From IMG/VR virus record IMGVR_UViG_2529292985_000033: a DNA stretch of 12,710 nucleotides; one strand, 5' to 3'. Made by a program: the position numbers and the translations under genes. Positions 1 to 12,710 of the stretch are shown here, one piece after another (position 1 is the first letter of the stretch; each line of letters begins with the position of its first letter). The stretch is from a virus (lineage: Duplodnaviria; Heunggongvirae; Uroviricota; Caudoviricetes). A model generated the notes under the pieces. The model was not told where the DNA came from and searched no databases. It saw nothing but the letters and a program-made list of their open reading frames with translations.

Positions 1-966
1 ATGACCAATAATCCCCCTTCAGCACAGATTAAGCCCGGCGAGTATGGTTTCCCCCTCAAGTTAAAAGCCCGCTATGACAACTTTATTGGCGGCGAATGGG
101 TAGCCCCTGCCGATGGTGAGTATTACCAGAACCTGACGCCGGTGACTGGGCAGCTGCTGTGCGAAGTGGCGTCTTCGGGCAAACGAGACATCGATCTGGC
201 GCTAGATGCTGCGCACAAAGTGAAAGATAAATGGGCGCACACCTCGGTGCAGGATCGCGCGGCGATTCTGTTTAAGATTGCCGATCGAATGGAACAAAAC
301 CTCGAGCTGTTAGCGACAGCTGAAACCTGGGATAACGGCAAACCCATTCGCGAAACCAGTGCTGCCGACGTGCCGCTGGCGATTGATCATTTTCGCTATT
401 TCGCCTCGTGTATTCGGGCGCAGGAAGGTGGGATCAGTGAAGTTGATAGCGAAACCGTGGCCTATCATTTCCATGAACCGTTAGGCGTGGTGGGGCAGAT
501 TATCCCGTGGAACTTCCCGCTGCTGATGGCGAGCTGGAAAATGGCTCCCGCGCTGGCGGCGGGCAACTGTGTGGTGCTGAAACCCGCACGTCTTACCCCG
601 CTTTCTGTACTGCTGCTAATGGAAATTGTCGGTGATTTACTGCCGCCGGGCGTGGTGAACGTGGTCAATGGCGCAGGTGGGGAAATTGGCGAATATCTGG
701 CGACCTCGAAACGCATCGCCAAAGTGGCGTTTACCGGCTCAACGGAAGTGGGCCAACAAATTATGCAATACGCAACGCAAAACATTATTCCGGTGACGCT
801 GGAGTTGGGCGGTAAGTCGCCAAATATCTTCTTTGCTGATGTGATGGATGAAGAAGATGCCTTTTTCGATAAAGCGCTGGAAGGCTTTGCACTGTTTGCC
901 TTTAACCAGGGCGAAGTTTGCACCTGTCCGAGTCGTGCTTTAGTGCAGGAATCTATCTACGAACGC
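1..966 (+). pseudogene. aldB: aldB 5' fragment (aldehyde dehydrogenase B), interrupted after codon 322 by IS1
   Basis: Translation from position 1 matches my recollection of E. coli AldB up to ...[10 protein letters not shown]. From 967 the frame continues into the IS1 terminal repeat ([26 protein letters not shown]), which is not AldB sequence. Confidence 0.9.
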
Positions 967-981
967 GGTAATGACTCCAAC

Positions 982-1485
982 TTACTGATAGTGTTTTATG
1001 TTCAGATAATGCCCGATGACCTTGTCATGCAGCTCCACCGATTTTGAGAACGACAGTGACTTCCGTCCCAGCCTTGCCAGATGTTGTCTCAGATTCAGAT
1101 TATGTCGCTCAATGCGCTGAGTGTAACGCTTGCTGATAACGTGCAGCTTTCCCTTCAGGCGTGATTCATACAGCGGCCAGCCATCCGTCATCCATACCAC
1201 GACCTCAAAGGCCGACAGCAGGCTCAGAAGACGCTCCAGTGTGGCCAGAGTGCGTTCACCGAAGACGTGCGCCACAACCGTCCTCCGTATCCTGTCATAC
1301 GCGTAAAACAGCCAGCGCTGACGTGATTTAGCACCGACGTAGCCCCACTGTTCGTCCATTTCAGCGCAGACAATCACATCACTGCCCGGTTGTATGCGCG
1401 AGGTTACCGACTGCGGCCTGAGTTTTTTAAGTGACGGAAAACCGTGTTGAGGCCAACGCCCATAATGCGTGCACTGGCGCGACAT
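982..1485 (-). CDS. insB: IS1 transposase InsB-frame ORF (iso-IS1 variant)
   Basis: 167-aa ORF with recognisable IS1 InsB sequence (…[21 protein letters not shown]…[52 protein letters not shown]…). Confidence 0.85.
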
Positions 1486-1567
1486 CCGACGCCATTCATG
1501 GCCATATCAATGATTTTCTGGTGCGTACCGGGCTGAGAGGCGGTGTAAGTGAACTGTAGTTGCCATG
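1404..1567 (-). pseudogene. insA: IS1 insA, 5'-truncated by the IS2 junction
   Basis: Encodes …[51 protein letters not shown], the C-terminal part of InsA. The Cys-rich N-terminus is absent and the apparent N-terminus of the track ORF lies inside IS2. Confidence 0.8.
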
Positions 1568-1578
1568 TGGATTTGCCC

Positions 1579-2484
1579 CTATATTTCCAGACATCTGTTA
1601 TCACTTAACCCATTACAAGCCCGCTGCCGCAGATATTCCCGTGGCGAGCGATAACCCAGCGCACTATGCGGATGCCATTCGTTATAATGCTCGAACGCCT
1701 CTGCAAGGTTCTTTGCTGCCGTTAACTCGTCTGGTTTGGGCATGATACTGATGTAGTCACGCTTTATCGTTTTCACGAAGCTCTCTGCTATTCCGTTACT
1801 CTCCGGACTCCGCACCGCCGTGTTCTTCGGTTCAAGTCCCAACATCCGGGCGAACTGGCGTGTTTCATTAGCCCGGTAGCATGAACCATTATCCGTCAGC
1901 CACTCCACTGGAGACGACGGAAGATCGTTGCCGAAGCGGCGTTCCACCGCTCCCAGCATGACGTCCTGTACTGTTTCACTGTTGAAGCCGCCGGTAGTCA
2001 CCGCCCAGTGCAGTGCCTCACGATCACAGCAGTCCAGCGCGAACGTGACACGCAGTCTCTCTCCGTTATCACAGCAGAACTCGAACCCGTCAGAGCACCA
2101 TCGCTGATTGCTTTCTTTCACGGCCACTCTGCCTGTATGTGCCCGTTTCGATGGCGGTACAGCAGGTTTTCGCTCAAGCAACAGCGCATTCTGGCGCATG
2201 ATCCGGTAAACACGTTTGGCATTGATCGCAGGCATACCATCAAGTTCTGCCTGTCTGCGAAGCAGCGCCCATACCCGACGATAACCATACGTGGGCAGCT
2301 CTCCGATAACATGGTGTATACGGAGAAGCACATCCGTATCATCAGTGTGACGACTGCGGCGGCCATCCATCCAGTCATCGGTTCGTCTGAGAATGACGTG
2401 CAACTGCGCACGCGACACCCGGAGACAACGGCTGACTAAGCTTACTCCCCATCCCCGGGCAATAAGGGCGCGTGCGCTATCCAC
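1579..2484 (-). CDS. insD: IS2 transposase OrfB (InsD), 301 aa
   Basis: ORF track protein matches IS2 InsD; it overlaps insC in the -1 frame as in IS3-family frameshift transposases. Confidence 0.9.
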
Positions 2485-2807
2485 TTTTTTGCCCGTCCAT
2501 ATTCAACGGCTTCTTTGAGGAGTTCATTTTCCATCGTTTTCTTGCCGAGCAGGCGCTGGAGTTCTTTAATCTGCTTCATGGCGGCAGCAAGTTCAGAGGC
2601 AGGAACAACCTGTTCTCCGGCGGCCACAGCAGTAAGACTTCCTTCCTGGTATTGCTTACGCCAGAGAAATAACTGGCTGGCTGCTACACCATGTTGCCGG
2701 GCAACGAGGGAGACCGTCATCCCCGGTTCAAAGCTCTGCTGAACAATTGCGATCTTTTCCTGTGTGGTACGCCGTCTGCGTTTCTCCGGCCCTAAGACAT
2801 CAATCAT
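2442..2807 (-). CDS. insC: IS2 OrfA (InsC), 121 aa; start taken at MIDVLGPEK
   Basis: [56 protein letters not shown]… is the HTH-containing IS2 OrfA. The track ORF extends 15 codons upstream, which I treat as non-coding. Confidence 0.9.
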
Positions 2808-2953
2808 CTGTACTCCAATGACTAGTCTAAAAACTAGTATTAAGACTATCACTTATTTAAGTGATACTGGTTGTCTGGAGATTCAGGGGGCCAGTCTACC
2901 CACTGACACTACCGGTGAGTTTAACGATACCTTCCATTTGACTGGCTCACTTT

Positions 2954-4810
2954 TTATGATGATGCCGGTGCATTTATCTCCAGCACCAGACTTTCTATCT
3001 CAACGCCATACGCTGCATTTTTGGTAATATCCGTCAGCGTCAGCGCATTCAGCCCCAGTGTCAGACTGTCTTTTATGACCTGGAATGCCGGGCCAGCCAC
3101 ACCATTCAGTTTCGGAGTAACCGTGGCACTGCCGGCGGTGAACACCAGCTCCAGCGTCTGCCAGTCGTTACTGTAATTCCCGAACTCGCCCAACTTTGTG
3201 TTTCCGGCTTTCTTGTGATGCATCAGATTCAGTTTGCCGTCTGTGGTCTGGGTGAAGAACGACATCAGGAACGGGTTACCAGTCCCGGTCATCGCCACGA
3301 CGTCAGGTAACGCTACATCGGTATACAGATAAATTCCCAGACCGAACTGGTTGTTGGTCAGTGCGCCTGACAGTCGAAACTTACAGCTCAGTCTGCCACC
3401 CCGTGTCAGCAGGGAGACTGCGTCATCCACCGGATGCATCAGGGACCAGGTTTTATTGCTCTGCTTGGTAACCTTAAACACACCATCTTCCAGCGCAACA
3501 CTGCCGCCGGTGATGGTCCAGCCCTGCGCAGCAGCCTCTCCGGCTGTCGGCAGCAGGGAGACTGTACGAACGGATGTGTCACCATCAGACGGCCCCGATG
3601 GCGTGTCGCCGCCGGGCGAGGGTTTAATCTCCGGTGCGGTACCGCTGATGAAGGCGCTGGTTCGACCAACTGCGTTCAGAATAGCGGTTGCCAGGCGATC
3701 CGAAATAATGCCCCTGCGCGCCCATGAACTGAAATGTGTCGGACGATTTGACGATACCCAATTACCATTACTACGGGATTGCGCGCCGTAATAACCTGCA
3801 TCAGCAATATCCGGGTCTTCTGCCGGTAAGTTGGTGGGCGTGTTGTTACCGTTACCGTCGGTCATGAACGGCACAAAGAAAACGTTGTCGCTCTCCCTGT
3901 TTTTGTACGCGCCGTAGACGGAGTCATACTGTGTGCCGTATGTGTTTTTCCAGTAATACGTCGTGTCGCCACAAATCCACGGTACAACTGCAGCACTGCC
4001 GCCATGGCACTGCGCGTTAAATCCGGAAAGGTCAGTACGGAACTGCTTCAGCATGGCCGTGAACAGGTCCGGTTGCTGTGCGTAGGTGGCAGCGCTCATG
4101 TCAAATTCGCCCTGCATCCAGCACACCGCCAGCAACACATTTTTCGGGTTCTTCTGTAATGCCGCTTTGGTGCGTGCGATCAGGTCCTGATATAACGGTT
4201 TACCCACACCCCAGCGTGCCGAATCCTGGCTGGCCCCCGTGTCCGCACTGAATGTCCCCTCCGCGCCCTGGGTGAATGCCGAACCACCACGACAGCATGG
4301 TACCAGCAGGATCCCCGCGTTATTCGGGATATACGGAAGCAGTTTTTTGGCAATATGTAAGCCCTGGCCGACACAGCCGTACTGCCCTTTGCTCAGGTCT
4401 GCCTTCGGATGATTCAGTGCGCTCATATCCTGAACATCATGCAGGCAGTGGTCTGCCGGAATGATGTCGTTAAATGCGCATGCTTTACCACCGGGAGTCA
4501 CTGTGTTGCGACGGGCCAGTTGCTTAATACGTGGGTGGGGCGCATCGTAAGAATCCGGAAGCGGAAGCCCTTCACCGTAAGCCATGGCATTGGATTGCCC
4601 GGCCAGTACGATGACGTAGTACCACTCCGGCTCAGTTGCACCACTGACGACCACATCACCTTCTGCTGCAATCGCCTGCATCAGGGTATAAGGGGTTATG
4701 GCCACCGGACTACCAAACGGCTGCCAGCCCTCTTTCAGTTTATGTGTCAGCTTTTCCGCAAGATCTGACGGCGACGCCGCCCTGACAACATCATAGTGTT
4801 TAAATGCCAT
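2954..4810 (-). CDS. nanS-p: Prophage-type sialate O-acetylesterase (NanS-p-like; N-terminal DUF1737-like region plus SASA/SGNH-type esterase domain)
   Basis: Contains the GQSN block (…VLAGQSNAMAYGEG…) typical of sialate O-acetylesterases, at a length (~620 aa) and position matching the nanS-p genes of Stx-type phages. Start placed at MAFKHYDVV (4810), which has a GGTGGAAAG SD-like sequence; the track start at 4825 has none. Confidence 0.75.
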   Translation of the reverse strand: MAFKHYDVVRAASPSDLAEKLTHKLKEGWQPFGSPVAITPYTLMQAIAAEGDVVVSGATEPEWYYVIVLAGQSNAMAYGEGLPLPDSYDAPHPRIKQLARRNTVTPGGKACAFNDIIPADHCLHDVQDMSALNHPKADLSKGQYGCVGQGLHIAKKLLPYIPNNAGILLVPCCRGGSAFTQGAEGTFSADTGASQDSARWGVGKPLYQDLIARTKAALQKNPKNVLLAVCWMQGEFDMSAATYAQQPDLFTAMLKQFRTDLSGFNAQCHGGSAAVVPWICGDTTYYWKNTYGTQYDSVYGAYKNRESDNVFFVPFMTDGNGNNTPTNLPAEDPDIADAGYYGAQSRSNGNWVSSNRPTHFSSWARRGIISDRLATAILNAVGRTSAFISGTAPEIKPSPGGDTPSGPSDGDTSVRTVSLLPTAGEAAAQGWTITGGSVALEDGVFKVTKQSNKTWSLMHPVDDAVSLLTRGGRLSCKFRLSGALTNNQFGLGIYLYTDVALPDVVAMTGTGNPFLMSFFTQTTDGKLNLMHHKKAGNTKLGEFGNYSNDWQTLELVFTAGSATVTPKLNGVAGPAFQVIKDSLTLGLNALTLTDITKNAAYGVEIESLVLEINAPASS

Positions 4811-5069
4811 GGTTCTTTCCACCATCTGAAAAATGATTCTTTAAAATACCTGACATGTAATACAGAAAAAAACAAAACCATACCTTAAATAAAAACCTCA
4901 TCATCAAGCAGATATGCATGGATAAACTACAAGACGAGATATAAACCACCATGCATTTAAATAAACAATAAACAACATCAGAAAAATAATTCTGCTCTAT
5001 GGTTTACAATCAAAAATATCATTTATACTTTTCAGAACATCACCAGCAAGACATAAACAAGGAAACTAA

Positions 5070-5405
5070 ATGAAGTGGATTGTGATTGATACAGTTATCC
5101 AGCCATCATGCGGAATATCTTTTTCAGTCATATGGAGTAAAATAAAATTAATAATCTGGTATCAATCGGATGCTTTCTTACCTCCTGAAAGTATATTTAC
5201 ACTGACTCACACAGGCATCATGCTCAATAACAAAGTGCTACCTGTAACCATTTACAACGTAGTGCCATTCAATAAAACATTCTGGAATTTAATCAAAAAC
5301 AGCCAGGAATGCCCTACAAATACAGATAACGTATTGAATGAATGCTTTAATAACCGTTGCACTCTGCAAATATGTCCTTATGGACTAAAACAACAAAGTC
5401 CATAA
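5070..5405 (+). CDS. Hypothetical 111-aa protein, AT-rich candidate moron ORF, opposite in orientation to all phage genes
   Basis: ATG at 5070 is preceded by AAGGA (5059-5063) with 6-nt spacing. It is the only ORF of 60 aa or more with an ATG start in the 4826-5830 segment. I recognise no similarity; the I/N/K-rich composition could be an artefact of AT-rich DNA. Confidence 0.35.
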
Positions 5406-5425
5406 GGAGTTTACTCACATCTGAC

Positions 5426-5461
5426 AAAATCAATATAAACAGCCCCTCCGGAGAGGGGCTG
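5426..5461 (-). terminator. Intrinsic terminator-like hairpin (9-bp stem CAGCCCCTC/GAGGGGCTG, 4-nt loop) followed on the minus strand by a U-rich tract
   Basis: Perfect inverted repeat at 5440-5448 / 5453-5461. The plus strand has an A-rich tract at 5426-5439, so the minus-strand RNA reads hairpin then UUUAUAUUGAUUUU. Confidence 0.5.
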
Positions 5462-5830
5462 GAGAGTGGCGCTATGTGCCATTGCATGGTGCCGGGTGCC
5501 TCCCGGTAAATTCAGCCTGTCTACTGAATTTGCATGTTCTCTGGATCATACACTTTGCCAGATGCCCCGCCGCTGAGGGGGATTCACCATGCGATGTAAT
5601 TTTTAACAAATTCTCCGGCAGCCAGACAATCATCAAGCTGTGGAATTGTGAGGTATTTAAAAATTTCAACGGGTAACTGATACCCTGCTAATCGCCTGAT
5701 GCTTTCTTTTTCAGCAACGGGAAAGCAACAACCACCACACCCGCCACCAAAACATCATCAGACAGCACCGACATTATCCGGCTGCTGAAGTCCACCATCA
5801 CCACCAGAAACAACAGGAGTGCAACCACAG

Positions 5831-5873
5831 CTGCTTAGAAGGCAATTGCTCTGTCCGGCTGAGCTAACAACGC
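5831..5873 (-). pseudogene. argO: tRNA-Arg(UCU)-like 5' fragment (acceptor, D-arm and anticodon arm only; T-arm and 3' acceptor strand missing)
   Basis: Minus-strand sequence GCGTTGTTAGCTCAGCCGGACAGAGCAATTGCCTTCTAAGCAGC folds as the 5' half of a tRNA with anticodon loop CTTCTAA. Sequence below 5831 has no T-loop or complementary acceptor strand. Gene symbol is by synteny with Stx-phage ileZ-argN-argO and is uncertain. Confidence 0.5.
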
Positions 5874-5887
5874 AGAATACCGATAAA

Positions 5888-5964
5888 TGGACCGCCATCG
5901 AGAACTCGAACCCCGCGCAACCAGCTTCGAAGGCTGGCGCTCTATCCCGATGAGCTAATGGCGG
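5888..5964 (-). tRNA. argN: tRNA-Arg, anticodon UCG (77 nt)
   Basis: Manual cloverleaf: acceptor CCGCCAT/ATGGCGG, D-stem GCTC/GAGC, anticodon stem CCAGC/GCTGG, loop CTTCGAA, T-loop TTCGAGT, 3' TCCA. Symbol by synteny only. Confidence 0.75.
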
Positions 5965-5971
5965 TATGTGA

Positions 5972-6047
5972 TGGTGGCCCTTGCTGGATTTGAACCAGCG
6001 ACCTGGCGATTATGAGTCGCTCGCTCTCACCACTGAGCTAAAGGGCC
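5972..6047 (-). tRNA. ileZ: tRNA-Ile2 (anticodon CAU, lysidine type; automatic tools may call it tRNA-Met), 76 nt
   Basis: Minus strand GGCCCTTTAGCTCAGTGGTGAGAGCGAGCGACTCATAATCGCCAGGTCGCTGGTTCAAATCCAGCAAGGGCCACCA closely resembles E. coli ileX-type tRNA, with anticodon loop CTCATAA and CCA end. Confidence 0.85.
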
Positions 6048-6087
6048 GGAAGCCGCATGATAACGACGCGTAATTAATTCTGCAATA

Positions 6088-7146
6088 TCATCCGTTCTGG
6101 CTGACTAAATCCTGTACTTCCCGAACCGTCTGCTCAAAACGTCCGGTCTCCAGCTCAACGCCAATCGCACGACGCCCGAGCGCCAGTGCCGCTTTTACCG
6201 TTGAACCTGAGTCCATAAAAAAATCTGCAACCAGGTCACCCGGACGACTGCTTGCGCTGATTATCTGCTGCAGCATTTCTGCCGGTTTTTCGCACGGATG
6301 TTTCCCGGGATAGAACTGCACCGGTTTATGTGTCCACACATCCGTGTACGGCACCTGCGCCGTCACACCAAAATACCGCCGCAGATGCTTATATTCACTC
6401 TGCAGCTCCACATACTGCCGATTCAGTGACGTATACGTATCCACCAGCTGGTGGTGGGGCTTTTCCAGTTCACCGCGCTGATGTTTCTCTTCTGCCACCC
6501 GGGCAAACAGCGACTGTAATTTCAGATAATCGCTTTCGTTCGGTAGCTGCCACTGACTGGCACTGAACCAGTGCGACACCATGTTTTTCTTTCCTGTGGC
6601 ATCTGCAATCTGTTTTGCCGTTATCCCCAGGGCCGCGCGCGCATCACGAAAGTAAGAAATCAGCGGGGCCATCACATGCTGTTTCAGTGCACTGCCCTTC
6701 GCCGCATACCCGGCATCTTTCGGACGATACGGCCCCTGATAATGTTCCGCGAACAGAATGCGCTCTGTGGCGGGGAAATACGCCCGCAGGCTTTCCTTGT
6801 TGCATCCGTTCCAGCGTCCGGACGGCTTCGCCCAGATAATATGGTTCAGCACACTGAAGCGTTCACGCATCATGATTTCGATATCAGATGCCAGGCGATG
6901 ACCACAGAACAGGTAAAGACTTCCGGCAGGTTTCAGCACCCGCCAGAACTGCGCCAGACACTGGTCCAGCCACTTCAGGTAATCATCGTCGCCCTTCCAC
7001 TGGTTATCCCAGCCCTCAGGCTTCACTTTAAAGTACGGCGGGTCCGTGACTATCAGGTCAACAGAATTTTCGGGTAACGACCAGATAAATTCCAGGCAGT
7101 CGGCGTTGATTAACTCACAACTGGATATTTTTACAGTATTAAGCAT
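6088..7146 (-). CDS. DNA methyltransferase, beta-class amino-MTase (N6-adenine or N4-cytosine), no adjacent restriction gene
   Basis: DPPY catalytic motif near the N-terminus (…DLIVTDPPYF…) and an AdoMet-binding motif near the C-terminus (…DLVADFFMDSGST…). This circular-permutation order is typical of beta-class MTases. Position between Q and the tRNA array matches Stx-type phages. Confidence 0.85.
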   Translation of the reverse strand: MLNTVKISSCELINADCLEFIWSLPENSVDLIVTDPPYFKVKPEGWDNQWKGDDDYLKWLDQCLAQFWRVLKPAGSLYLFCGHRLASDIEIMMRERFSVLNHIIWAKPSGRWNGCNKESLRAYFPATERILFAEHYQGPYRPKDAGYAAKGSALKQHVMAPLISYFRDARAALGITAKQIADATGKKNMVSHWFSASQWQLPNESDYLKLQSLFARVAEEKHQRGELEKPHHQLVDTYTSLNRQYVELQSEYKHLRRYFGVTAQVPYTDVWTHKPVQFYPGKHPCEKPAEMLQQIISASSRPGDLVADFFMDSGSTVKAALALGRRAIGVELETGRFEQTVREVQDLVSQNG

Positions 7147-7240
7147 GGATCATTAAGCCTGTCTCTGATAGGCTCATTCTGCTTTTGCGCAAAGCAGTGG
7201 GCCTGAGGTTTGCTTGTGAACCCAACGCATGAGCAGATGG

Positions 7241-7267
7241 CTGGTGGGTGCCCCTAACACCCACCAG
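7241..7267. other. Perfect 10-bp inverted repeat CTGGTGGGTG-N7-CACCCACCAG (stable hairpin, no U-tract)
   Basis: Read directly from the sequence; lies in the 150-bp leader between the small HTH ORF and the MTase start. Confidence 0.6.
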
Positions 7268-7283
7268 CCGCCCATTTACCACA

Positions 7284-7310
7284 AATAAAAAAGCCTTCAC
7301 TGCGGAAGGC
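7284..7310 (-). terminator. Intrinsic terminator-like hairpin (GCCTTC-N6-GAAGGC) followed on the minus strand by UUUUUUAUUU
   Basis: Stem at 7293-7298 / 7305-7310 with a plus-strand A-run at 7284-7292. It overlaps the stop codon of the 7297-7494 ORF. Confidence 0.55.
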
Positions 7311-7494
7311 GTCTGTAACAACCGAACTGATAGTCTGCCAGACCCGCCATAACCAGCTGGGTCAGTATTAACTGGCAGCGTTCGCGTGAAAGGTAAGTAT
7401 TCTGCGCAATCTCCCCGACTGTCGCCGGGTCGTTAACGCTTAATTCATTAAACACCACTCTGGCGGTTTCTGTCATATCCTGCTGTTTTAGCAT
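7297..7494 (-). CDS. Hypothetical 65-aa protein with HTH-like segment (…ATVGEIAQNTYLSRERCQLILTQLV…), first ORF of the late transcript
   Basis: Start chosen at MLKQQDM (ATG 7492-7494), preceded by AAGGGAAAAAGAC. The longer track ORF (to 7581) would run through the tR'-like terminator. The motif assignment is by eye only. Confidence 0.4.
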   Translation of the reverse strand: MLKQQDMTETARVVFNELSVNDPATVGEIAQNTYLSRERCQLILTQLVMAGLADYQFGCYRRLPQ

Positions 7495-7614
7495 GTCTTT
7501 TTCCCTTTTCCGGTTAACGTGACACACCAATAACTCTTGTCGAAAAAGCCAGCAAGCTGAAAGACAGGTATTCACCGCCACCAGCGCGTTTACTGTACTG
7601 ACGCGATTTCAGTC

Positions 7615-7638
7615 ATAAAAAACCCGCCAGGCGGCGGG
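7615..7638 (-). terminator. tR'-like intrinsic terminator just downstream of the late promoter
   Basis: Minus-strand RNA CCCGCC-GCCU-GGCGGG followed by UUUUUU (plus-strand A-run 7615-7622), about 45-65 nt downstream of the predicted pR' start. This matches the lambdoid pR'-tR' short-transcript arrangement. Confidence 0.65.
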
Positions 7639-7687
7639 GTGTAAAAAATCTTCTAACGTCAGGCATAAAACGCCCATCGTTAGAGCA

Positions 7688-7715
7688 AATTTACCACAGA
7701 TTCGGGAAAAATCAA
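7688..7715 (-). promoter_or_regulatory. pR'-like late promoter (-35 TTGATT, 16-nt spacer, -10 TAAATT) immediately downstream of the Q-like gene
   Basis: Minus strand reads TTGATTtttcccgaatctgtggTAAATT; lambda pR' has the same TAAATT -10. Located 6 bp after the stop of the 273-aa ORF. Confidence 0.5.
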
Positions 7716-7720
7716 CAACA

Positions 7721-8542
7721 CTATCGCGTTACCCTCTTTAACTGCCGCTCCGCCCATGCCTCTTCAATGTCAAACCGAACCACCAACGTATCGTAAAAGC
7801 GTTTCACTGATTTTTTCCACGTATCAAGCGTGATAGCACTCGTCACTTTGCATATGGCATTAAATGCCTCCGTTGATGGTAGTCTTTCACAGCCACGACC
7901 ACCACAACGCTGGCAGTCTCTGATAACAGGCATACCACGTTTTACCGACTCTTCACGATGAATGGCGACACCACGCCCACGGCAATCCTTACAGGCGGTG
8001 GAAACCTCACCCTTTCCGCCACACTCCGGACAGGCAACTTTTACCACCTCCCTGACTTTTTTCCATTCTTCCCAGTAAGACGGATACACACCTTTCGTAC
8101 ACTTTGCCCATACCGGCGGCTTACCATCCGGATACTGGACCTTGTTTGTAAAAACTACGCTTTCAATAAATTTTTCCCCATAGCAACAAGGGCACTGCTT
8201 TTTACTCGCTGCGCTGCGGGCATAATCCTCAAAAGCGTACGAAGCCATAATGCGCATCACTACCGGTTTTATTTCTGCCGGAAGTTTTCTCAACGCCGCC
8301 ACACGATCGCACCGACTGAGTGCATAATCTGCCAGTAATTCTGTTGCCCGCGCCCTGTCATTCATACTGATGCCCATTTTCCCCAGGAACGCAGAAAACC
8401 CCATCTCAGCCCGATTCTGTGTCATGCCCTGCGCGGCCATCACATCAGTGATACTCAGCGCATCTTTTGACGTTGAGGCCGATACATCGGTCAGGCCAGG
8501 GGATTTTGGGGAGTAGTATTTCGGTAAATCTTCCAGTTTCAT
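7721..8542 (-). CDS. Probable late-gene antiterminator Q-like protein (273 aa) with four CxxC pairs (zinc-ribbon-like)
   Basis: Sits immediately upstream of the pR'/tR' pair and downstream of rusA, the canonical Q position. Contains CPCCYGEK, CPECGGKGE, CKDCRGRG and CQRCGGRGCE. Its start overlaps the rusA stop (ATGA). Assignment is by synteny, not sequence recognition. Confidence 0.55.
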   Translation of the reverse strand: MKLEDLPKYYSPKSPGLTDVSASTSKDALSITDVMAAQGMTQNRAEMGFSAFLGKMGISMNDRARATELLADYALSRCDRVAALRKLPAEIKPVVMRIMASYAFEDYARSAASKKQCPCCYGEKFIESVVFTNKVQYPDGKPPVWAKCTKGVYPSYWEEWKKVREVVKVACPECGGKGEVSTACKDCRGRGVAIHREESVKRGMPVIRDCQRCGGRGCERLPSTEAFNAICKVTSAITLDTWKKSVKRFYDTLVVRFDIEEAWAERQLKRVTR

Positions 8543-8913
8543 TTTTTGACCTGCTCTTCATGCATTATGGGGTAAATCTTCACCCCCATACGTCCACCAG
8601 ATACTGGCTGACCACGAACGATATTGATTTCATCAAACTGCTCATCGTCCATTAACACTCCCGCATGCGTCAGCGCATCCAGCGGTGCTTTCAGGATATT
8701 GTCCAGGTCGCGACGACGCTTATCCGGTGGCTCTGCAATCACCTTTATCGCCAGCCTTCCGGACAGGCTTAATTTCAGCCGCTGCTGGCGAACAATAAGC
8801 GCCACAGCCCGGCGATAACGCTTTCCCTCCTCCGAGATAAAATATGTGCTGCCACGGCGTCGCCAGTAAGTGTTCACCGTCGGCGGGTAAGGTAAAACCA
8901 AATCTATGAGCAT
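8539..8913 (-). CDS. rusA: RusA-family Holliday-junction resolvase (124 aa)
   Basis: …PPDKRRRDLDNILKAPLDALTHAGVLMDDEQ… resembles the conserved acidic catalytic region of K-12 RusA (…[30 protein letters not shown]…). Confidence 0.85.
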   Translation of the reverse strand: MLIDLVLPYPPTVNTYWRRRGSTYFISEEGKRYRRAVALIVRQQRLKLSLSGRLAIKVIAEPPDKRRRDLDNILKAPLDALTHAGVLMDDEQFDEINIVRGQPVSGGRMGVKIYPIMHEEQVKK

Positions 8914-8925
8914 CAGTCACCTCTT

Positions 8926-9972
8926 TTACCCAAGCACGCCAGTTGCAAAGGCGTGATCAAGAAAACGAAAAATTAAATCAACCTGAGAACCATGCTTTTC
9001 TTCGAACGCCAGAGGATCCGCATGAAGCTCGTTGTGATGCTCCCGACACAGCGGTAGCGTGAAAATATCGTGAGATTTTGTCCCCATTCCGCCCTGACCA
9101 TGACCAATCAGGTGATGGGGATCGTCGGCTGGCTTACCACAACACGCACACGGCTGTGTCTTCACCCAGCGTGTGTATTTCTCGTTAACCCAGCGGCGAC
9201 GTTTAGGTCGTTTCATGAAAGATTCCGGAGACTCAGGATCAACGGCAATGCTGACCACCGTCTCTTCCTGTGGCGGGTTTTGCTGGTGGGCGTGAGGCAG
9301 CGGCGCAAGATTTTTTGTGCGCTGCTTCAGTATGCTGGTGGCGGTCTGCTCTCCCGGTACGATGTCGCTTTCACGGTACATTGAGCGGATTTTTTCCGCA
9401 CGCAACCCCAGCGAACGACGTAATACCGCTTCCGGTAGCGCGTCCGCCACCTGATTGCGGACCGCCCACCAGGATAATTCAGCCAGCGATAATTCCCGTT
9501 CCTGCGAGCCATTCATTGCATGGCGTATGACGTCAATCATCCATGCAGACAGGTTTTGGTGAGCAAGTTGCCCGAGTGATTCGGAGGTCTGGTCGCGCAG
9601 CTGGTTGTCGCAGTGCCAGCACAACACCATTGCGCCGGTACCATAACGGTGAATGACGGTTTCACTGTGGTGATAATCGCCGTGTGGCCACTGGCAGGAT
9701 TTAACATGGCGCAGTAACCAGTCAGACAATGCGCCAGCGCCACCAGCAGCACGAATCACTCGTTCGTCGCTGAAAGATGGCAGTAATGATTTATCCTCCG
9801 CCAGCGGCTGGCGAACGGCAGGAACGACCCCGGACGGCAGATTACGCATGCTTTTCGGTTCCGGCTCCACCAGTACCCGGGTATTGTGGAATACCGGCAT
9901 GGATTCACGGCCCGGCTTAACGATCACCAGCCCGAGTTCCGGTACCAGAACAGGTCGAAGTAATACCCGCAC
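8926..9972 (-). CDS. YdfU-like prophage protein (348 aa) with C-terminal Cys/His cluster resembling an HNH/zinc-binding motif
   Basis: Length and position (upstream of rusA and Q in the nin-like region) fit the Qin-prophage YdfU family as I recall it. C-terminus has CACCGKP…HHLIGH…CREHHNELH. Confidence 0.6.
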   Translation of the reverse strand: MRVLLRPVLVPELGLVIVKPGRESMPVFHNTRVLVEPEPKSMRNLPSGVVPAVRQPLAEDKSLLPSFSDERVIRAAGGAGALSDWLLRHVKSCQWPHGDYHHSETVIHRYGTGAMVLCWHCDNQLRDQTSESLGQLAHQNLSAWMIDVIRHAMNGSQERELSLAELSWWAVRNQVADALPEAVLRRSLGLRAEKIRSMYRESDIVPGEQTATSILKQRTKNLAPLPHAHQQNPPQEETVVSIAVDPESPESFMKRPKRRRWVNEKYTRWVKTQPCACCGKPADDPHHLIGHGQGGMGTKSHDIFTLPLCREHHNELHADPLAFEEKHGSQVDLIFRFLDHAFATGVLG

Positions 9973-9973
9973 G

Positions 9974-10252
9974 TTATCTCCAGATGCGTTGCTGGTATGT
10001 GCGGGACAGACGCGGTGGGCGTTCGGAGTAAGGAAGCCTGACGGAGATTATCCAGTGACGGTAGTCGAGGCTAAGGGCTTTTTTAACCTCGCATCCGCGC
10101 CTGCGGTAACACTGAATGAGCCATTCGGCCTGTTCTTCAGTGCATGGGGGATGCTGGTACCAGTCTGACTTAAATGCGTGAGAATACCGCTCCTGCGTGT
10201 GGGCAAGAACGGTCGAATTATCATGTTTGTAATATTTTGCGTTGCGTGCCAT
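9974..10252 (-). CDS. Hypothetical prophage protein (92 aa)
   Basis: ORF with a GGAGAA SD about 6 nt upstream of the ATG at 10252, tightly packed against the downstream gene. No family recognised. Confidence 0.55.
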   Translation of the reverse strand: MARNAKYYKHDNSTVLAHTQERYSHAFKSDWYQHPPCTEEQAEWLIQCYRRRGCEVKKALSLDYRHWIISVRLPYSERPPRLSRTYQQRIWR

Positions 10253-10318
10253 CGGTTTTCTCCGGTGGCACGGTGTTACTCAGCGGGAGTTCAGCCCCGC
10301 GCAAGATTGTAGATGAGT

Positions 10319-10570
10319 TTATTCTTCTGAAAAAGCAGAAAAGCCAGCTTTTATTCCGATCTCTTTCAATACCTGTAATGAAGTGACAAACTCACCGTCG
10401 CGCAAGATAAATCCGTCCGTCACTCGGGCATCCACAAAATTAATTAACGCAGCCCCATTTTTTTGCAAACACACAATGCGGTAATGACTAACAATATTTC
10501 CATTTTCAACGCACACAGCATAGAGGCCATCTTCACAAAAAATTTTACGCAGTTCTTCGATGTTCATCAT
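10319..10570 (-). CDS. Hypothetical 83-aa protein; size and position between hokD and the ydfU-like gene match Qin-prophage rem
   Basis: GGAAGGA SD upstream of the ATG at 10570. Assignment rests on gene order and length only; I cannot confirm sequence identity to Rem. Confidence 0.5.
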   Translation of the reverse strand: MMNIEELRKIFCEDGLYAVCVENGNIVSHYRIVCLQKNGAALINFVDARVTDGFILRDGEFVTSLQVLKEIGIKAGFSAFSEE

Positions 10571-10686
10571 CAGAATCCTTCCGGATAATTAGCTCTCCCC
10601 TTTAAGGGACCATCCCTCTTATCCCTGCGCGCTACTTAAGTATTTTTGATTCTATTCCGGCACCGTCCAGAACTTCAAATGCGTTG

Positions 10687-10717
10687 AAAATAAAAACAAA
10701 AACCCGCCGAAGCGGGT
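10687..10717 (-). terminator. Intrinsic terminator at the 3' end of the hok mRNA (stem ACCCGC/GCGGGT, loop CGAA, then U-rich tract)
   Basis: Hairpin at 10702-10717 with a plus-strand A-rich run at 10687-10701. Confidence 0.55.
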
Positions 10718-10722
10718 TAAGT

Positions 10723-10736
10723 GCGGGTGCGTTGAG
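10723..10736 (-). promoter_or_regulatory. hok mRNA 3' fbi-like element, complementary to the predicted mRNA 5' end (11102-11114)
   Basis: Plus strand GCGGGTGCGTTGAG (10723-10736) matches the reverse complement of CTCAAGCACCCGC (11102-11114) except for one bulged base, giving a ~13-bp long-range 5'/3' pairing as in the hok fbi/tac architecture. Confidence 0.5.
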
Positions 10737-10786
10737 AATGCCTGCCACATCAGAGGTGGCGAGGGATTTCTCCCTCGCCGGGTCTC

Positions 10787-10942
10787 TTACTCCTCAGGTT
10801 CGTAAGCTGTGAAGACAGCGACCTCCGTCTGGCCGGTTCGGATTCGTACCTCGCAGAGGTCTTTCCTCGTTACCAGTGCCGTCACAATGACGGTTAAACA
10901 GATGACGATCAGGGCGATTAGCATCGCCTTTTGCTGCTTCAT
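10787..10942 (-). CDS. hokD: HokD (RelF) type I toxin, 51 aa
   Basis: MKQQKAMLIALIVICLTVIVTALVTRKDLCEVRIRTGQTEVAVFTAYEPEE matches HokD as I recall it. The track ORF extends 19 codons upstream in frame to 10999. Confidence 0.9.
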   Translation of the reverse strand: MKQQKAMLIALIVICLTVIVTALVTRKDLCEVRIRTGQTEVAVFTAYEPEE

Positions 10943-11118
10943 AGCCTGCTTCTCCTTGCCTTTCGGCACGTAAGAGGCTAACCTACGTGTGTAGAGCATA
11001 GATATGGCCTCAGATTAATGTTAAGCGTCTTGCCGGACGCGTAATGTTAACTGGGGCTTTTCTCTATCTGCCTTTTGGTGTTCATGCCTGAGACAGATAG
11101 CCTCAAGCACCCGCTGCA

Positions 11119-11146
11119 ATTCTACTTAACTCTCCTTTTCCCGCAA
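11119..11146 (-). promoter_or_regulatory. Candidate hok mRNA promoter (-35 TTGCGG, 16-nt spacer, -10 TAGAAT)
   Basis: Minus strand reads TTGCGGgaaaaggagagttaagTAGAAT. The predicted start near 11112 coincides with the tac-like element and gives a transcript of about 420 nt to the terminator. Confidence 0.45.
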
Positions 11147-11153
11147 ACCGTTT

Positions 11154-11237
11154 TTATCCCCAGCGGCAAATCGAATACACCACCAGCGCCACCGCCATCG
11201 CAATTCCTACCGTTGTTAATGCTTCAGGCCAGGTCAT
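11154..11237 (-). CDS. Candidate 27-aa hydrophobic peptide (MTWPEALTTVGIAMAVALVVYSICRWG)
   Basis: Its ATG overlaps the stop of the upstream 77-aa ORF (ATGA), suggesting translational coupling. It has a single predicted transmembrane-like stretch. It is below the ORF-track size cutoff and was found by manual translation. Confidence 0.3.
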   Translation of the reverse strand: MTWPEALTTVGIAMAVALVVYSICRWG

Positions 11238-11467
11238 CGTAAAATATCCTCCACGCTTATCAGTCCGTTCCGCTCCAGATAACTCATCGCCTTATCCGGT
11301 AATTTGCAGTCTGGCTTCGCTTTCCTCAGTTGCCAGGTTAACTGCTTTACCAGCATGGTTAACTCATCGACCAGACGCTGATATCCCACTGGTTTGTATT
11401 CATGCAATTTACCGGCTGGCTCTGCTGCCAGCGATACCAGTGCGATTTCCAGAACAGCAATATCCAT
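11234..11467 (-). CDS. Hypothetical 77-aa ORF (MDIAVLEIALVSLAAEPAGKLHEYK…ISVEDILR), possibly the 3' part of a gene interrupted by IS2
   Basis: The ATG at 11465-11467 lies 3 bp from the IS2 end with no SD. The track ORF starts 10 codons further upstream, inside IS2. No family recognised. Confidence 0.45.
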   Translation of the reverse strand: MDIAVLEIALVSLAAEPAGKLHEYKPVGYQRLVDELTMLVKQLTWQLRKAKPDCKLPDKAMSYLERNGLISVEDILR

Positions 11468-11481
11468 CTTTGGATTTGCCC

Positions 11482-12387
11482 CTATATTTCCAGACATCTG
11501 TTATCACTTAACCCATTACAAGCCCGCTGCCGCAGATATTCCCGTGGCGAGCGATAACCCAGCGCACTATGCGGATGCCATTCGTTATAATGCTCGAACG
11601 CCTCTGCAAGGTTCTTTGCTGCCGTTAACCCGTCTGGTTTGGGCATGATACTGATGTAGTCACGCTTTATCGTTTTCACGAAGCTCTCTGCTATTCCGTT
11701 ACTCTCCGGACTCCGCACCGCCGTGTTCTTCGGTTCAAGTCCCAACATCCGGGCGAACTGGCGTGTTTCATTAGCCCGGTAGCATGAACCATTATCCGTC
11801 AGCCACTCCACTGGAGACGACGGAAGATCGTTGCCGAAGCGGCGTTCCACCGCTCCCAGCATGACGTCCTGTACTGTTTCACTGTTGAAGCCGCCGGTAG
11901 TCACCGCCCAGTGCAGTGCCTCACGATCACAGCAGTCCAGCGCGAACGTGACACGCAGTCTCTCTCCGTTATCACAGCAGAACTCGAACCCGTCAGAGCA
12001 CCATCGCTGATTGCTTTCTTTCACGGCCACTCTGCCTGTATGTGCCCGTTTCGATGGTGGTACAGCAGGTTTTCGCTCAAGCAACAGCGCATTCTGGCGC
12101 ATGATCCGGTAAACACGTTTGGCATTGATCGCAGGCATACCATCAAGTTCTGCCTGTCTGCGAAGCAGCGCCCATACCCGACGATAACCATACGTGGGCA
12201 GCTCTCCGATAACATGGTGTATACGGAGAAGCACATCCGTATCATCAGTGTGACGACTGCGGCGGCCATCCATCCAGTCATCGGTTCGTCTGAGAATGAC
12301 GTGCAACTGCGCACGCGACACCCGGAGACAACGGCTGACTAAGCTTACTCCCCATCCCCGGGCAATAAGGGCGCGTGCGCTATCCAC
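11482..12387 (-). CDS. insD: IS2 transposase OrfB (InsD), copy 2 (E to G substitution relative to copy 1)
   Basis: 301-aa ORF identical to copy 1 except PKPDELT to PKPDGLT. Confidence 0.9.
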
Positions 12388-12710
12388 TTTTTTGCCCGTC
12401 CATATTCAACGGCTTCTTTGAGGAGTTCATTTTCCATCGTTTTCTTGCCGAGCAGGCGCTGGAGTTCTTTAATCTGCTTCATGGCGGCAGCAAGTTCAGA
12501 GGCAGGAACAACCTGTTCTCCGGCGGCCACAGCAGTAAGACTTCCTTCCTGGTATTGCTTACGCCAGAGAAATAACTGGCTGGCTGCTACACCATGTTGC
12601 CGGGCAACGAGGGAGACCGTCATCCCCGGTTCAAAGCTCTGCTGAACAATTGCGATCTTTTCCTGTGTGGTACGCCGTCTGCGTTTCTCCGGCCCTAAGA
12701 CATCAATCAT
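12345..12710 (-). CDS. insC: IS2 OrfA (InsC), copy 2; start codon is the last codon of the window
   Basis: 121-aa ORF identical to copy 1 InsC. Confidence 0.9.

Follow-up and report, generated by a model that had tools for sequence, protein, structure and literature searches.

The stretch of DNA analysed here, IMG/VR virus record IMGVR_UViG_2529292985_000033 (12,710 nt, the whole of which is referred to as the window), carries two copies of the insertion sequence (IS) IS2 in the same orientation. The copies enclose 8572 bp from a lambdoid prophage (its late-regulatory region), and the first of them connects this phage DNA to a truncated IS1 that interrupts the chromosomal gene aldB (Table 1). 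Comparison with related genomes showed that the two IS2 are independent, ordinary transposition events, each with its own 5-bp target duplication, and that both are common by descent with sister genomes. The sole anomaly of the window is the outer flank of copy 1, which consists of the interior of the IS1 beside aldB and not of the holin side of the prophage. The account we favour, with a probability of about 0.8, is that of independent simple IS2 insertions followed by a swap of flanks at copy 1.

Draft contig AERM01000123.1 of assembly GCA_000193895.2, which a published strain table assigns to Shigella dysenteriae CDC 74-1112 (PMC6397287), matches the window with 100% identity. The contig is 19,228 bp long and terminates exactly at the tip of the left inverted repeat (IRL) of IS2 copy 2, 91 bp past window position 12710. 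Its opposite end begins inside an Rhs-family gene, both contig ends being repeated DNA; nevertheless, the contig passes straight through IS1 and IS2 copy 1. Nearly all genes between the two IS2 copies are encoded on the minus strand. Read from right to left, the order is the 77-amino-acid (aa) open reading frame (ORF), hok/sok, rem, the DUF968 gene, rusA, the Q antiterminator, the N6/N4 methyltransferase, two tRNAs, the STnc100 small RNA (sRNA), the IraM/PmrD-like gene (on the plus strand) and the nanS-p esterase.

Table 1. Features of the window, with coordinates in window positions (IRR, right inverted repeat)
Feature	Coordinates	Strand	Description
aldB (aldehyde dehydrogenase B), 5' part, broken by IS1	1-967	+	RefSeq 'aldB: aldehyde dehydrogenase AldB'; Pfam Aldedh on 348-aa product
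IS1 remnant	968-1567	-	600 of 768 bp, from IRR tip (968) to break inside insA; insB ORF 982-1485; Pfam DDE_Tnp_IS1
IS2 copy 1	1568-2898	-	Complete, 1331 bp; IRR end 1568, IRL end 2898; orfA and orfB
CCCAC half-duplication	2899-2903		From IS2 insertion between nanS-p and holin gene
nanS-p-type SASA carbohydrate esterase	2954-4825	-	Longest ORF 623 aa; Pfam DUF1737, SASA and DUF6645; RefSeq 'SASA family carbohydrate esterase'
PmrD/IraM-like gene, 111 aa	5070-5405	+	Pfam PmrD; RefSeq 'anti-adapter protein IraM' in E. coli relatives
STnc100-family small RNA	5431-5622	-	Rfam RF02076, 130.6 bits
Two phage tRNA genes	5888-6047	-	Arg-TCG 5888-5964, CAT-anticodon 5972-6047; ARAGORN and Rfam tRNA
N6/N4 DNA methyltransferase, 352 aa	6088-7146	-	Pfam N6_N4_Mtase
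Q-type late antiterminator, 273 aa	7721-8542	-	Pfam Antiterm; RefSeq 'antitermination protein'
RusA resolvase	8539-8913	-	Pfam RusA
DUF968 protein	8926-9972	-	Pfam DUF968
rem	10319-10570	-	Pfam Rem
hokD-type toxin	10787-10999	-	Pfam HOK_GEF
sok antisense RNA	10937-11112	-	Rfam sok, 117 bits
Hypothetical phage gene, 77 aa	11234-11467	-	Called as 77 aa in related genomes; hypothetical protein in E. coli
ATCTT half-duplication	11466-11470		From IS2 copy 2 insertion
IS2 copy 2	11471-12710	-	First 1240 of 1331 bp in window, other 91 bp in source contig; orientation as copy 1

The two IS2 copies and their insertion sites

The window contains a single long direct repeat, 1568-2807 against 11471-12710. 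Base-by-base comparison of its 1240 comparable bases gave 2 mismatches, at offset 159 (T at 1727 vs C at 11630) and at offset 587 (C at 2155 vs T at 12058). Identity of 99.8% over 1.24 kb is far more than chance could produce. Copy 1 is 99.7% identical to the E. coli element whose RefSeq annotation reads 'IS3-like element IS2 family transposase' and 'programmed frameshift'. Its terminal repeats are imperfect (IRL 42 nt and IRR 41 nt, with one gap in their alignment), and its ends read TAGACTGGCCCCC... and TGGATTTGCCCC.... The orfA and orfB frames overlap on the minus strand, and an A6G slippery motif was located at IS2 nt 409, 6 nt ahead of the opening of the orfB frame. Pfam assigned the domains HTH_Tnp_1, HTH_21, rve and rve_3 (DDE transposase) to the products. 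Both elements display every testable property of IS2; the target duplication is present in relatives and is lacking for copy 1 here, where the left flank is CCATG (IS1 interior) and the right flank CCCAC (phage DNA), while the right flank of copy 2, which the initial annotation had suggested inspecting, lies past the end of the contig. These results bear out three statements of the initial annotation, which was made from the sequence alone: that two same-orientation IS2 copies with 2 differences in 1240 positions bracket the prophage DNA, that copy 1 is without a target duplication, and that it joins a truncated IS1 to phage DNA just after nanS-p. The stop codon of nanS-p, at 2954-2956, is 55 bp from the IS2 end.

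Relatives with the prophage were found via an identical 352-aa methyltransferase, a gene inside the module, so that the sample is biased with respect to deleted forms; most of the matched relatives are megabase-scale or complete chromosome sequences. Among the retrieved loci, L020 and L021 are S. dysenteriae, as indicated by companion plasmid records, L028 is an IMG/VR provirus and L023 is the source contig. The nearest complete genome is CP026840.1; the strain name used for it here, ATCC 9753, is that of the plasmid record whose accession is adjacent.

Both insertion sites are intergenic. The nanS site is located between the end of nanS-p, 55 bp away, and the holin gene, 100 bp away, and reads ...GACGACCCAC-IS2-CCCACTGACAC in L017, L018, L020, L021, L022 and L028, with CCCAC on both sides of the element. 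The genes for holin, DUF1327, lysozyme, Rz, Nu1 and terminase follow directly behind this IS2 in five related genomes. The hok-side site lies 3 bp before the 77-aa gene beside hok, and its junction, TTTCCAGAACAGCAATATCCATCTT-TGGATTT, was recovered in eight other assemblies (L017-L022, L024 and L025). Six of the eight (L017-L020, L022 and L024) present both flanks together with the target duplication, while L021 and L025 present the left junction. The arrangement is ATCTT-IS2-ATCTT in L019 and L020, and the right copy of the duplication is 1 base shorter in L017, L018, L022 and L024. This short copy has TCTT for ATCTT at the IS2 tip (TA/ATCTT vs TA/TCTT), which may be variation or a long-read indel error. 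Beyond the hok-site IS2, the relatives carry the phage early genes, and the early side reads ATCTTATATG.

Uninterrupted versions of both sites were also identified. The nanS site reads ...GACGACCCACTGACAC in IS-free relatives, and the hok-side site reads CCATCTTATATG in E. coli; single-copy empty sites were seen in L019, L024, L025, L003 and L002. An exact look-up of the 623-aa NanS-p returned only IS-free E. coli prophages, which were used as empty-site references, and the nanS-side IS2 junction was not found in the GTDB representative genomes. Because L019, L024 and L025 possess the hok-site IS2 and lack the nanS-site IS2, the two elements were gained separately. Independent insertion means that the IS2 pair is not a unit that arrived together, and that the 8.6 kb between the copies is the middle of a larger prophage, which was recovered as a 51.7-kb provirus contig from one relative. 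The IS2-module-IS2 arrangement was not encountered as a whole unit at differing locations; the relatives keep both elements inside an intact prophage, some with one only.

The initial annotation had named two simple insertions with intact duplications as the finding that would speak against its interpretation, and this is what the sister genomes contain, with CCCAC and ATCTT at the respective sites and empty sites in IS-free relatives. The comparison with genomes lacking IS2, which it had recommended, yielded the single-copy empty sites and the three loci with the hok-site copy only. Two of its further claims are not borne out. In the sister genomes, the 8.6 kb is not a prophage fragment, since the prophage runs on at both sides. 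Likewise, the window does not document a removal of the lysis genes: it shows only that, in this draft contig, they do not come next, and five relatives have them behind the same IS2.

IS2 or IS2-like elements were observed at other positions of the same backbone. In E. coli NCTC86 (L002, 14812-16142), an IS2-like element with 97.3% identity and the duplication GTCGA lies 26 bp away from the hok-side site and has the same orientation. In E. coli Ec-2844 (L001, 6177-7507), an IS2 with the duplication GAAAC is found between nanS-p and the IraM-like gene. These E. coli cases are independent IS2 hits on the same prophage backbone. The arrangement of the window is absent from complete E. coli genomes, and the four best matches there have IS2 or IS2-like elements at other backbone sites.

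At the hok side, 3 bp separate IS2 copy 2 from the downstream start codon of the 77-aa gene, toward which the transposase genes of the element are directed. Within the IS2 tip, a further ATG in the same frame lengthens the ORF from 77 to 87 aa (window 11467-11497, minus strand), and some assemblies call the 87-aa version. Read-through or fusion expression of the 77-aa gene from IS2 copy 2 is possible, judging from this layout.

The join between aldB, IS1 and IS2 copy 1

The open frame of aldB continues to 1047 within IS1, and an identical truncated AldB product is encoded in 13 long (>1 Mb) related Shigella contigs, none of which continues from the interrupted aldB and IS1 into IS2 and phage DNA. 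The IS1 remnant starts with the IS1 terminal repeat GGTAATGACTCCAACTTACTGATAG and is without the IRL-side 168 bp (TTTTACGGCAATGAGAGC); in relatives, an intact IS1 goes on past the position that corresponds to 1567. The remnant equals the aldB-linked IS1 of the relatives up to 1436 and differs from it only at 1437, 1443 and 1479, near the junction. All three changes alter InsB, and they yield an IS1 allele that is common, in multiple copies, among related genomes. It was considered as a private marker of the window and rejected, as it occurs in IS1 at many sites.

The junction was searched for with an exact 37-mer (GTDB, JGI metagenome and IMG/VR contigs) and with 120 nt (E. coli genomes and PLSDB plasmids). 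It was absent from the complete E. coli genomes, PLSDB plasmids, GTDB representative genomes, JGI metagenome contigs, IMG/VR and the other loci fetched. Apparent 100% matches to the 120-nt query were rejected, being two separate pieces 312-518 bp apart.

The nearest complete genome differs from the source contig at 0 positions in 7394 bp of chromosomal flank and at 1 position in 8572 bp of phage DNA. CP026840.1 keeps an intact IS1 followed by yiaN', as well as an intact prophage, and the aldB locus and the prophage are ~2.2 Mb apart. The relative strands of the two loci in CP026840, PSSQ01000001 and CP026825 are those seen in the window. Because of this shared strand topology, a single crossover between IS2 copies would delete ~2.5 Mb or produce a duplication-type join, and would not invert the intervening DNA. 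The initial annotation had attributed the join to IS2-mediated deletion or recombination. The unmatched flanks do indicate an exchange or rearrangement at IS2, and that part of the proposal stands, but a simple deletion, of ~2.5 Mb, does not fit.

The IS1 next to aldB (around 10968-11735 in loci L007-L014) has different right-hand neighbours among the relatives. It is followed by yiaN' (DctM) in L008, L009, L010 and L013, and by yhjC-like LysR genes in L007, L011, L012 and L014. In CP026825 (L014), an independent IS2 is nested in the aldB-linked IS1 at another site and in the opposite orientation, with the duplication GTCGG. The insertion of an IS2 into the aldB-linked IS1 combined with one inversion was considered as an origin of the join, and was rejected on the strand topology of the three related chromosomes and on the foreign IS1 alleles. 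Furthermore, the large virulence-type plasmid of ATCC 9753 (L027, CP026841.1, 163000-166000) carries an IS1, 65 bp and an IS2 in the order and orientation of the window junction. Loss of 233 bp on this plasmid would recreate the IS1-IS2 junction, which we regard as only a lead. IS1 and IS2 are also neighbours, at other spacings, on S. boydii, S. flexneri and E. coli plasmids.

Origin of the join

Copy 1 is a hybrid IS in the sense that its flanks come from two insertion sites, the nanS-site CCCAC on the right and the IS1 interior on the left. Its single-nucleotide differences may likewise form a mosaic, with only one marker per part: T159 near the IS1 side and C587 toward the phage side. The T at offset 159, which encodes E253 of OrfB, was private to copy 1 when compared with the IS2 of the relatives, and an exact-sequence look-up returned no record of this OrfB variant. 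The C at offset 587 is the base found in the nanS-site copy of the nearest relatives; copy 2 has a T there, the allele typical of the hok-site copy in 4 of 6 relatives.

In the flank swap that we favour, the exchange would have taken place inside the IS2 repeat and probably also inside IS1. The right junction would have been supplied by the prophage IS2, and the left junction by an IS2 truly abutting an IS1 interior somewhere in this genome. The sequence around the IS1-IS2 junction looks derived from an IS1::IS2 pair that differs from either flanking locus. Because the junction lies exactly at the IS2 tip, it is a genuine transposase product located somewhere in the genome.

The exchange itself could have been made on the computer or in the cell. 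The likeliest route, which we hold at roughly even odds, is that the assembler walked or merged through 1.9 kb of multi-copy IS1 and IS2. In addition to this passage through 1.9 kb of collapsed repeats, the route would need one real junction elsewhere in the genome. Indirectly in its favour, the draft contig ends at an IS end, the join is unique, and it conflicts with a near-identical complete genome. The second route, successive homologous recombination between IS1 copies and between IS2 copies in the cell, we consider possible and put forward tentatively. For this, three or more events specific to the strain would have to have occurred after its very recent split from ATCC 9753, and the chromosome arrangement would have to be unlike that of the three relatives.

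Several observations weigh against an assembly origin. The IS1-IS2 junction lies at the exact terminal base of IS2 and is thus biological. The aldB-linked IS1 is a genuine rearrangement node, with two right flanks among the relatives and a nested IS2 in CP026825. The private T159 suggests copy-specific reads, not a repeat consensus, and hence some real support for the contig. Additionally, the chromosome arrangement of CDC 74-1112 may differ from that of its relatives, and Shigella genomes invert often (PMC8072062). High rates of rearrangement at IS are documented for Shigella chromosomes (PMC8072062; PMC7373316). The assembler and the in-cell alternatives predict the same short junctions and are inseparable by them.

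A different explanation holds that copy 1, the 8.6-kb module and copy 2 moved together as an 11.2-kb composite transposon into the IS1 beside aldB. Such a move would have proceeded from the outermost ends, the IRR of copy 1 and the IRL of copy 2, with the original prophage copy staying in place. The copies being direct repeats, their outer ends form the correct IRR/IRL pair. A unit that had moved would retain the ancestral phage flanks at its inner ends, and CCCAC and ATCTT are these flanks; on the outer left side, the element borders on a new target exactly at the IS2 tip. Moreover, no 2.5-Mb deletion would be needed, and the contig halts where copy 2 ends on the outside, which would fit a repeated IS1 as the next sequence. 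The predicted right flank (CCATG and the missing 168 bp of IS1), however, is not in the contig, which ends first. None of the relatives has T159 of copy 1 in its prophage nanS-site IS2, the IS1 alleles differ from those of the aldB-linked IS1, and the unit was found outside the prophage in no other genome examined. IS2 is a copy-out/paste-in element, and we know of no documented case in which it mobilised an 11-kb composite, which also counts against this explanation. Overall, we judge a composite transposon improbable. If it were real, phage 'moron' cargo would move without the phage, namely hok/sok, rusA, the Q antiterminator, the methyltransferase, the two tRNAs, the STnc100 sRNA, the IraM-like gene and nanS-p.

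Very unlikely, in our view, is an adjacent deletion by IS2, in which the prophage IS2 would have struck, with its IRR end, an IS1 nearby on the same molecule, with loss of all intervening DNA and the lysis genes in it. It would leave one original flank, one new flank and no target duplication, as observed, and L025 has an IS1 close by, in the DUF1327 gene just after the holin gene, though in the opposite orientation. The new flank of copy 1, however, is the IS1 in aldB, ~2.2 Mb from the prophage, so that ~2.5 Mb would go, based on the three related chromosomes; T159 and the foreign IS1 alleles are likewise not expected from one step.

Finally, we find hardly credible the objection raised in the initial annotation, according to which copy 2 results from a repeat collapsed or misplaced in assembly. 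The contig does end at the outer end of copy 2, so that this copy may in part have been built as a consensus from IS2 reads, but the hok-side junction recurs in eight other assemblies, mostly megabase-scale or complete chromosomes, six of these eight show the other flank and the target duplication, and T587 is the typical hok-site allele (4 of 6 relatives). The doubtful part of the contig is the left join of copy 1, which crosses two multi-copy repeats and recurs in none of the sequences searched.

A flank swap at copy 1, the reading that we prefer, leaves both insertions as simple events. If the join is real, the prophage is split at IS2 between nanS-p and the lysis cassette, which would be one more step of prophage decay. 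Where the flanks of an IS do not match in a draft contig, a deletion should be called only after read-level linkage has been checked.

The phage module and known IS systems

The features of the module varied among the relatives. The product of nanS-p is called as 618 aa in related assemblies and in the source contig. At STnc100, L017, L018, L021, L022, L024, L025 and L026 carry ~466 bp of extra sequence with a second, diverged copy ~467 bp away (L017, 11513-12180). With their single STnc100 copy, the window, L019 and L020 seem to have undergone a deletion between the two repeats. The two tRNAs are annotated as tRNA-Arg and tRNA-Ile in RefSeq relatives; for the CAT-anticodon gene, ARAGORN predicts Met, and its RefSeq E. 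coli counterpart is tRNA-Ile. Between hok and rem, E. coli relatives contain an extra ~2-kb insert of two genes (helix-turn-helix/peptidase M78 and a hypothetical protein; L002, 12202-13936; L003, 1990-3724), which is absent from the window (about 10570-10790) and from the related Shigella-lineage loci.

Although the gene order equals that of the Q-to-lysis region of Shiga toxin (Stx) phages, no stx genes were found between the tRNAs and nanS-p in the window. A known parallel is the stx region of S. dysenteriae type 1, an IS-flanked part of a defective prophage that reportedly amplifies and deletes (McDonough & Butterton 1999, cited in PMC7819885). Both cases are in S. dysenteriae and have direct IS repeats around the Q-to-lysis interval of a lambdoid prophage; they differ in the flanking IS and in the lack of stx between the tRNAs and nanS-p here. 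The amplification and deletion of the stx region reportedly occur by recombination, and the IS that flanks it is IS600. In principle, the direct IS2 repeats could delete or tandemly amplify the Q-to-nanS-p module by homologous recombination in the same manner, a general possibility for 1.3-kb direct repeats that the initial annotation had raised. No deleted or amplified form of the module was seen among the relatives, which were retrieved through a module gene.

The join can be compared with two further systems. With the homologous rearrangements mediated by IS in Shigella it shares one IS with flanks from two sites. Among reconstructed inversions, 103 of 114 fall on Shigella branches, and recombination between repeats is the accepted cause (PMC8072062). 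The join described here is, in contrast, of the deletion or duplication type when set against the three related chromosomes, and it rests on a single draft contig. With chimeric contigs induced by repeats it has in common that the draft ends at an IS, that the join lies inside multi-copy repeats, that it is unique, and that a near-identical genome contradicts it.

In all other respects, the elements resemble ordinary IS2 insertions of Shigella, in the length of 1331 bp, the 42/41-nt ends, the A6G frameshift and, in relatives, the 5-bp duplications; copy 2 and the right end of copy 1 fit this pattern, and only the left flank of copy 1 departs from it. Expansion of IS1, IS2, IS4, IS600 and IS911 is found throughout Shigella, whose reference chromosomes each contain 229-348 IS, including IS nested in one another (PMC7373316). 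As Shigella chromosomes have hundreds of IS copies, pairs of IS2 around a few kb are to be expected. The window holds nothing outside well-described IS biology, and both insertions are already present in public complete genomes.

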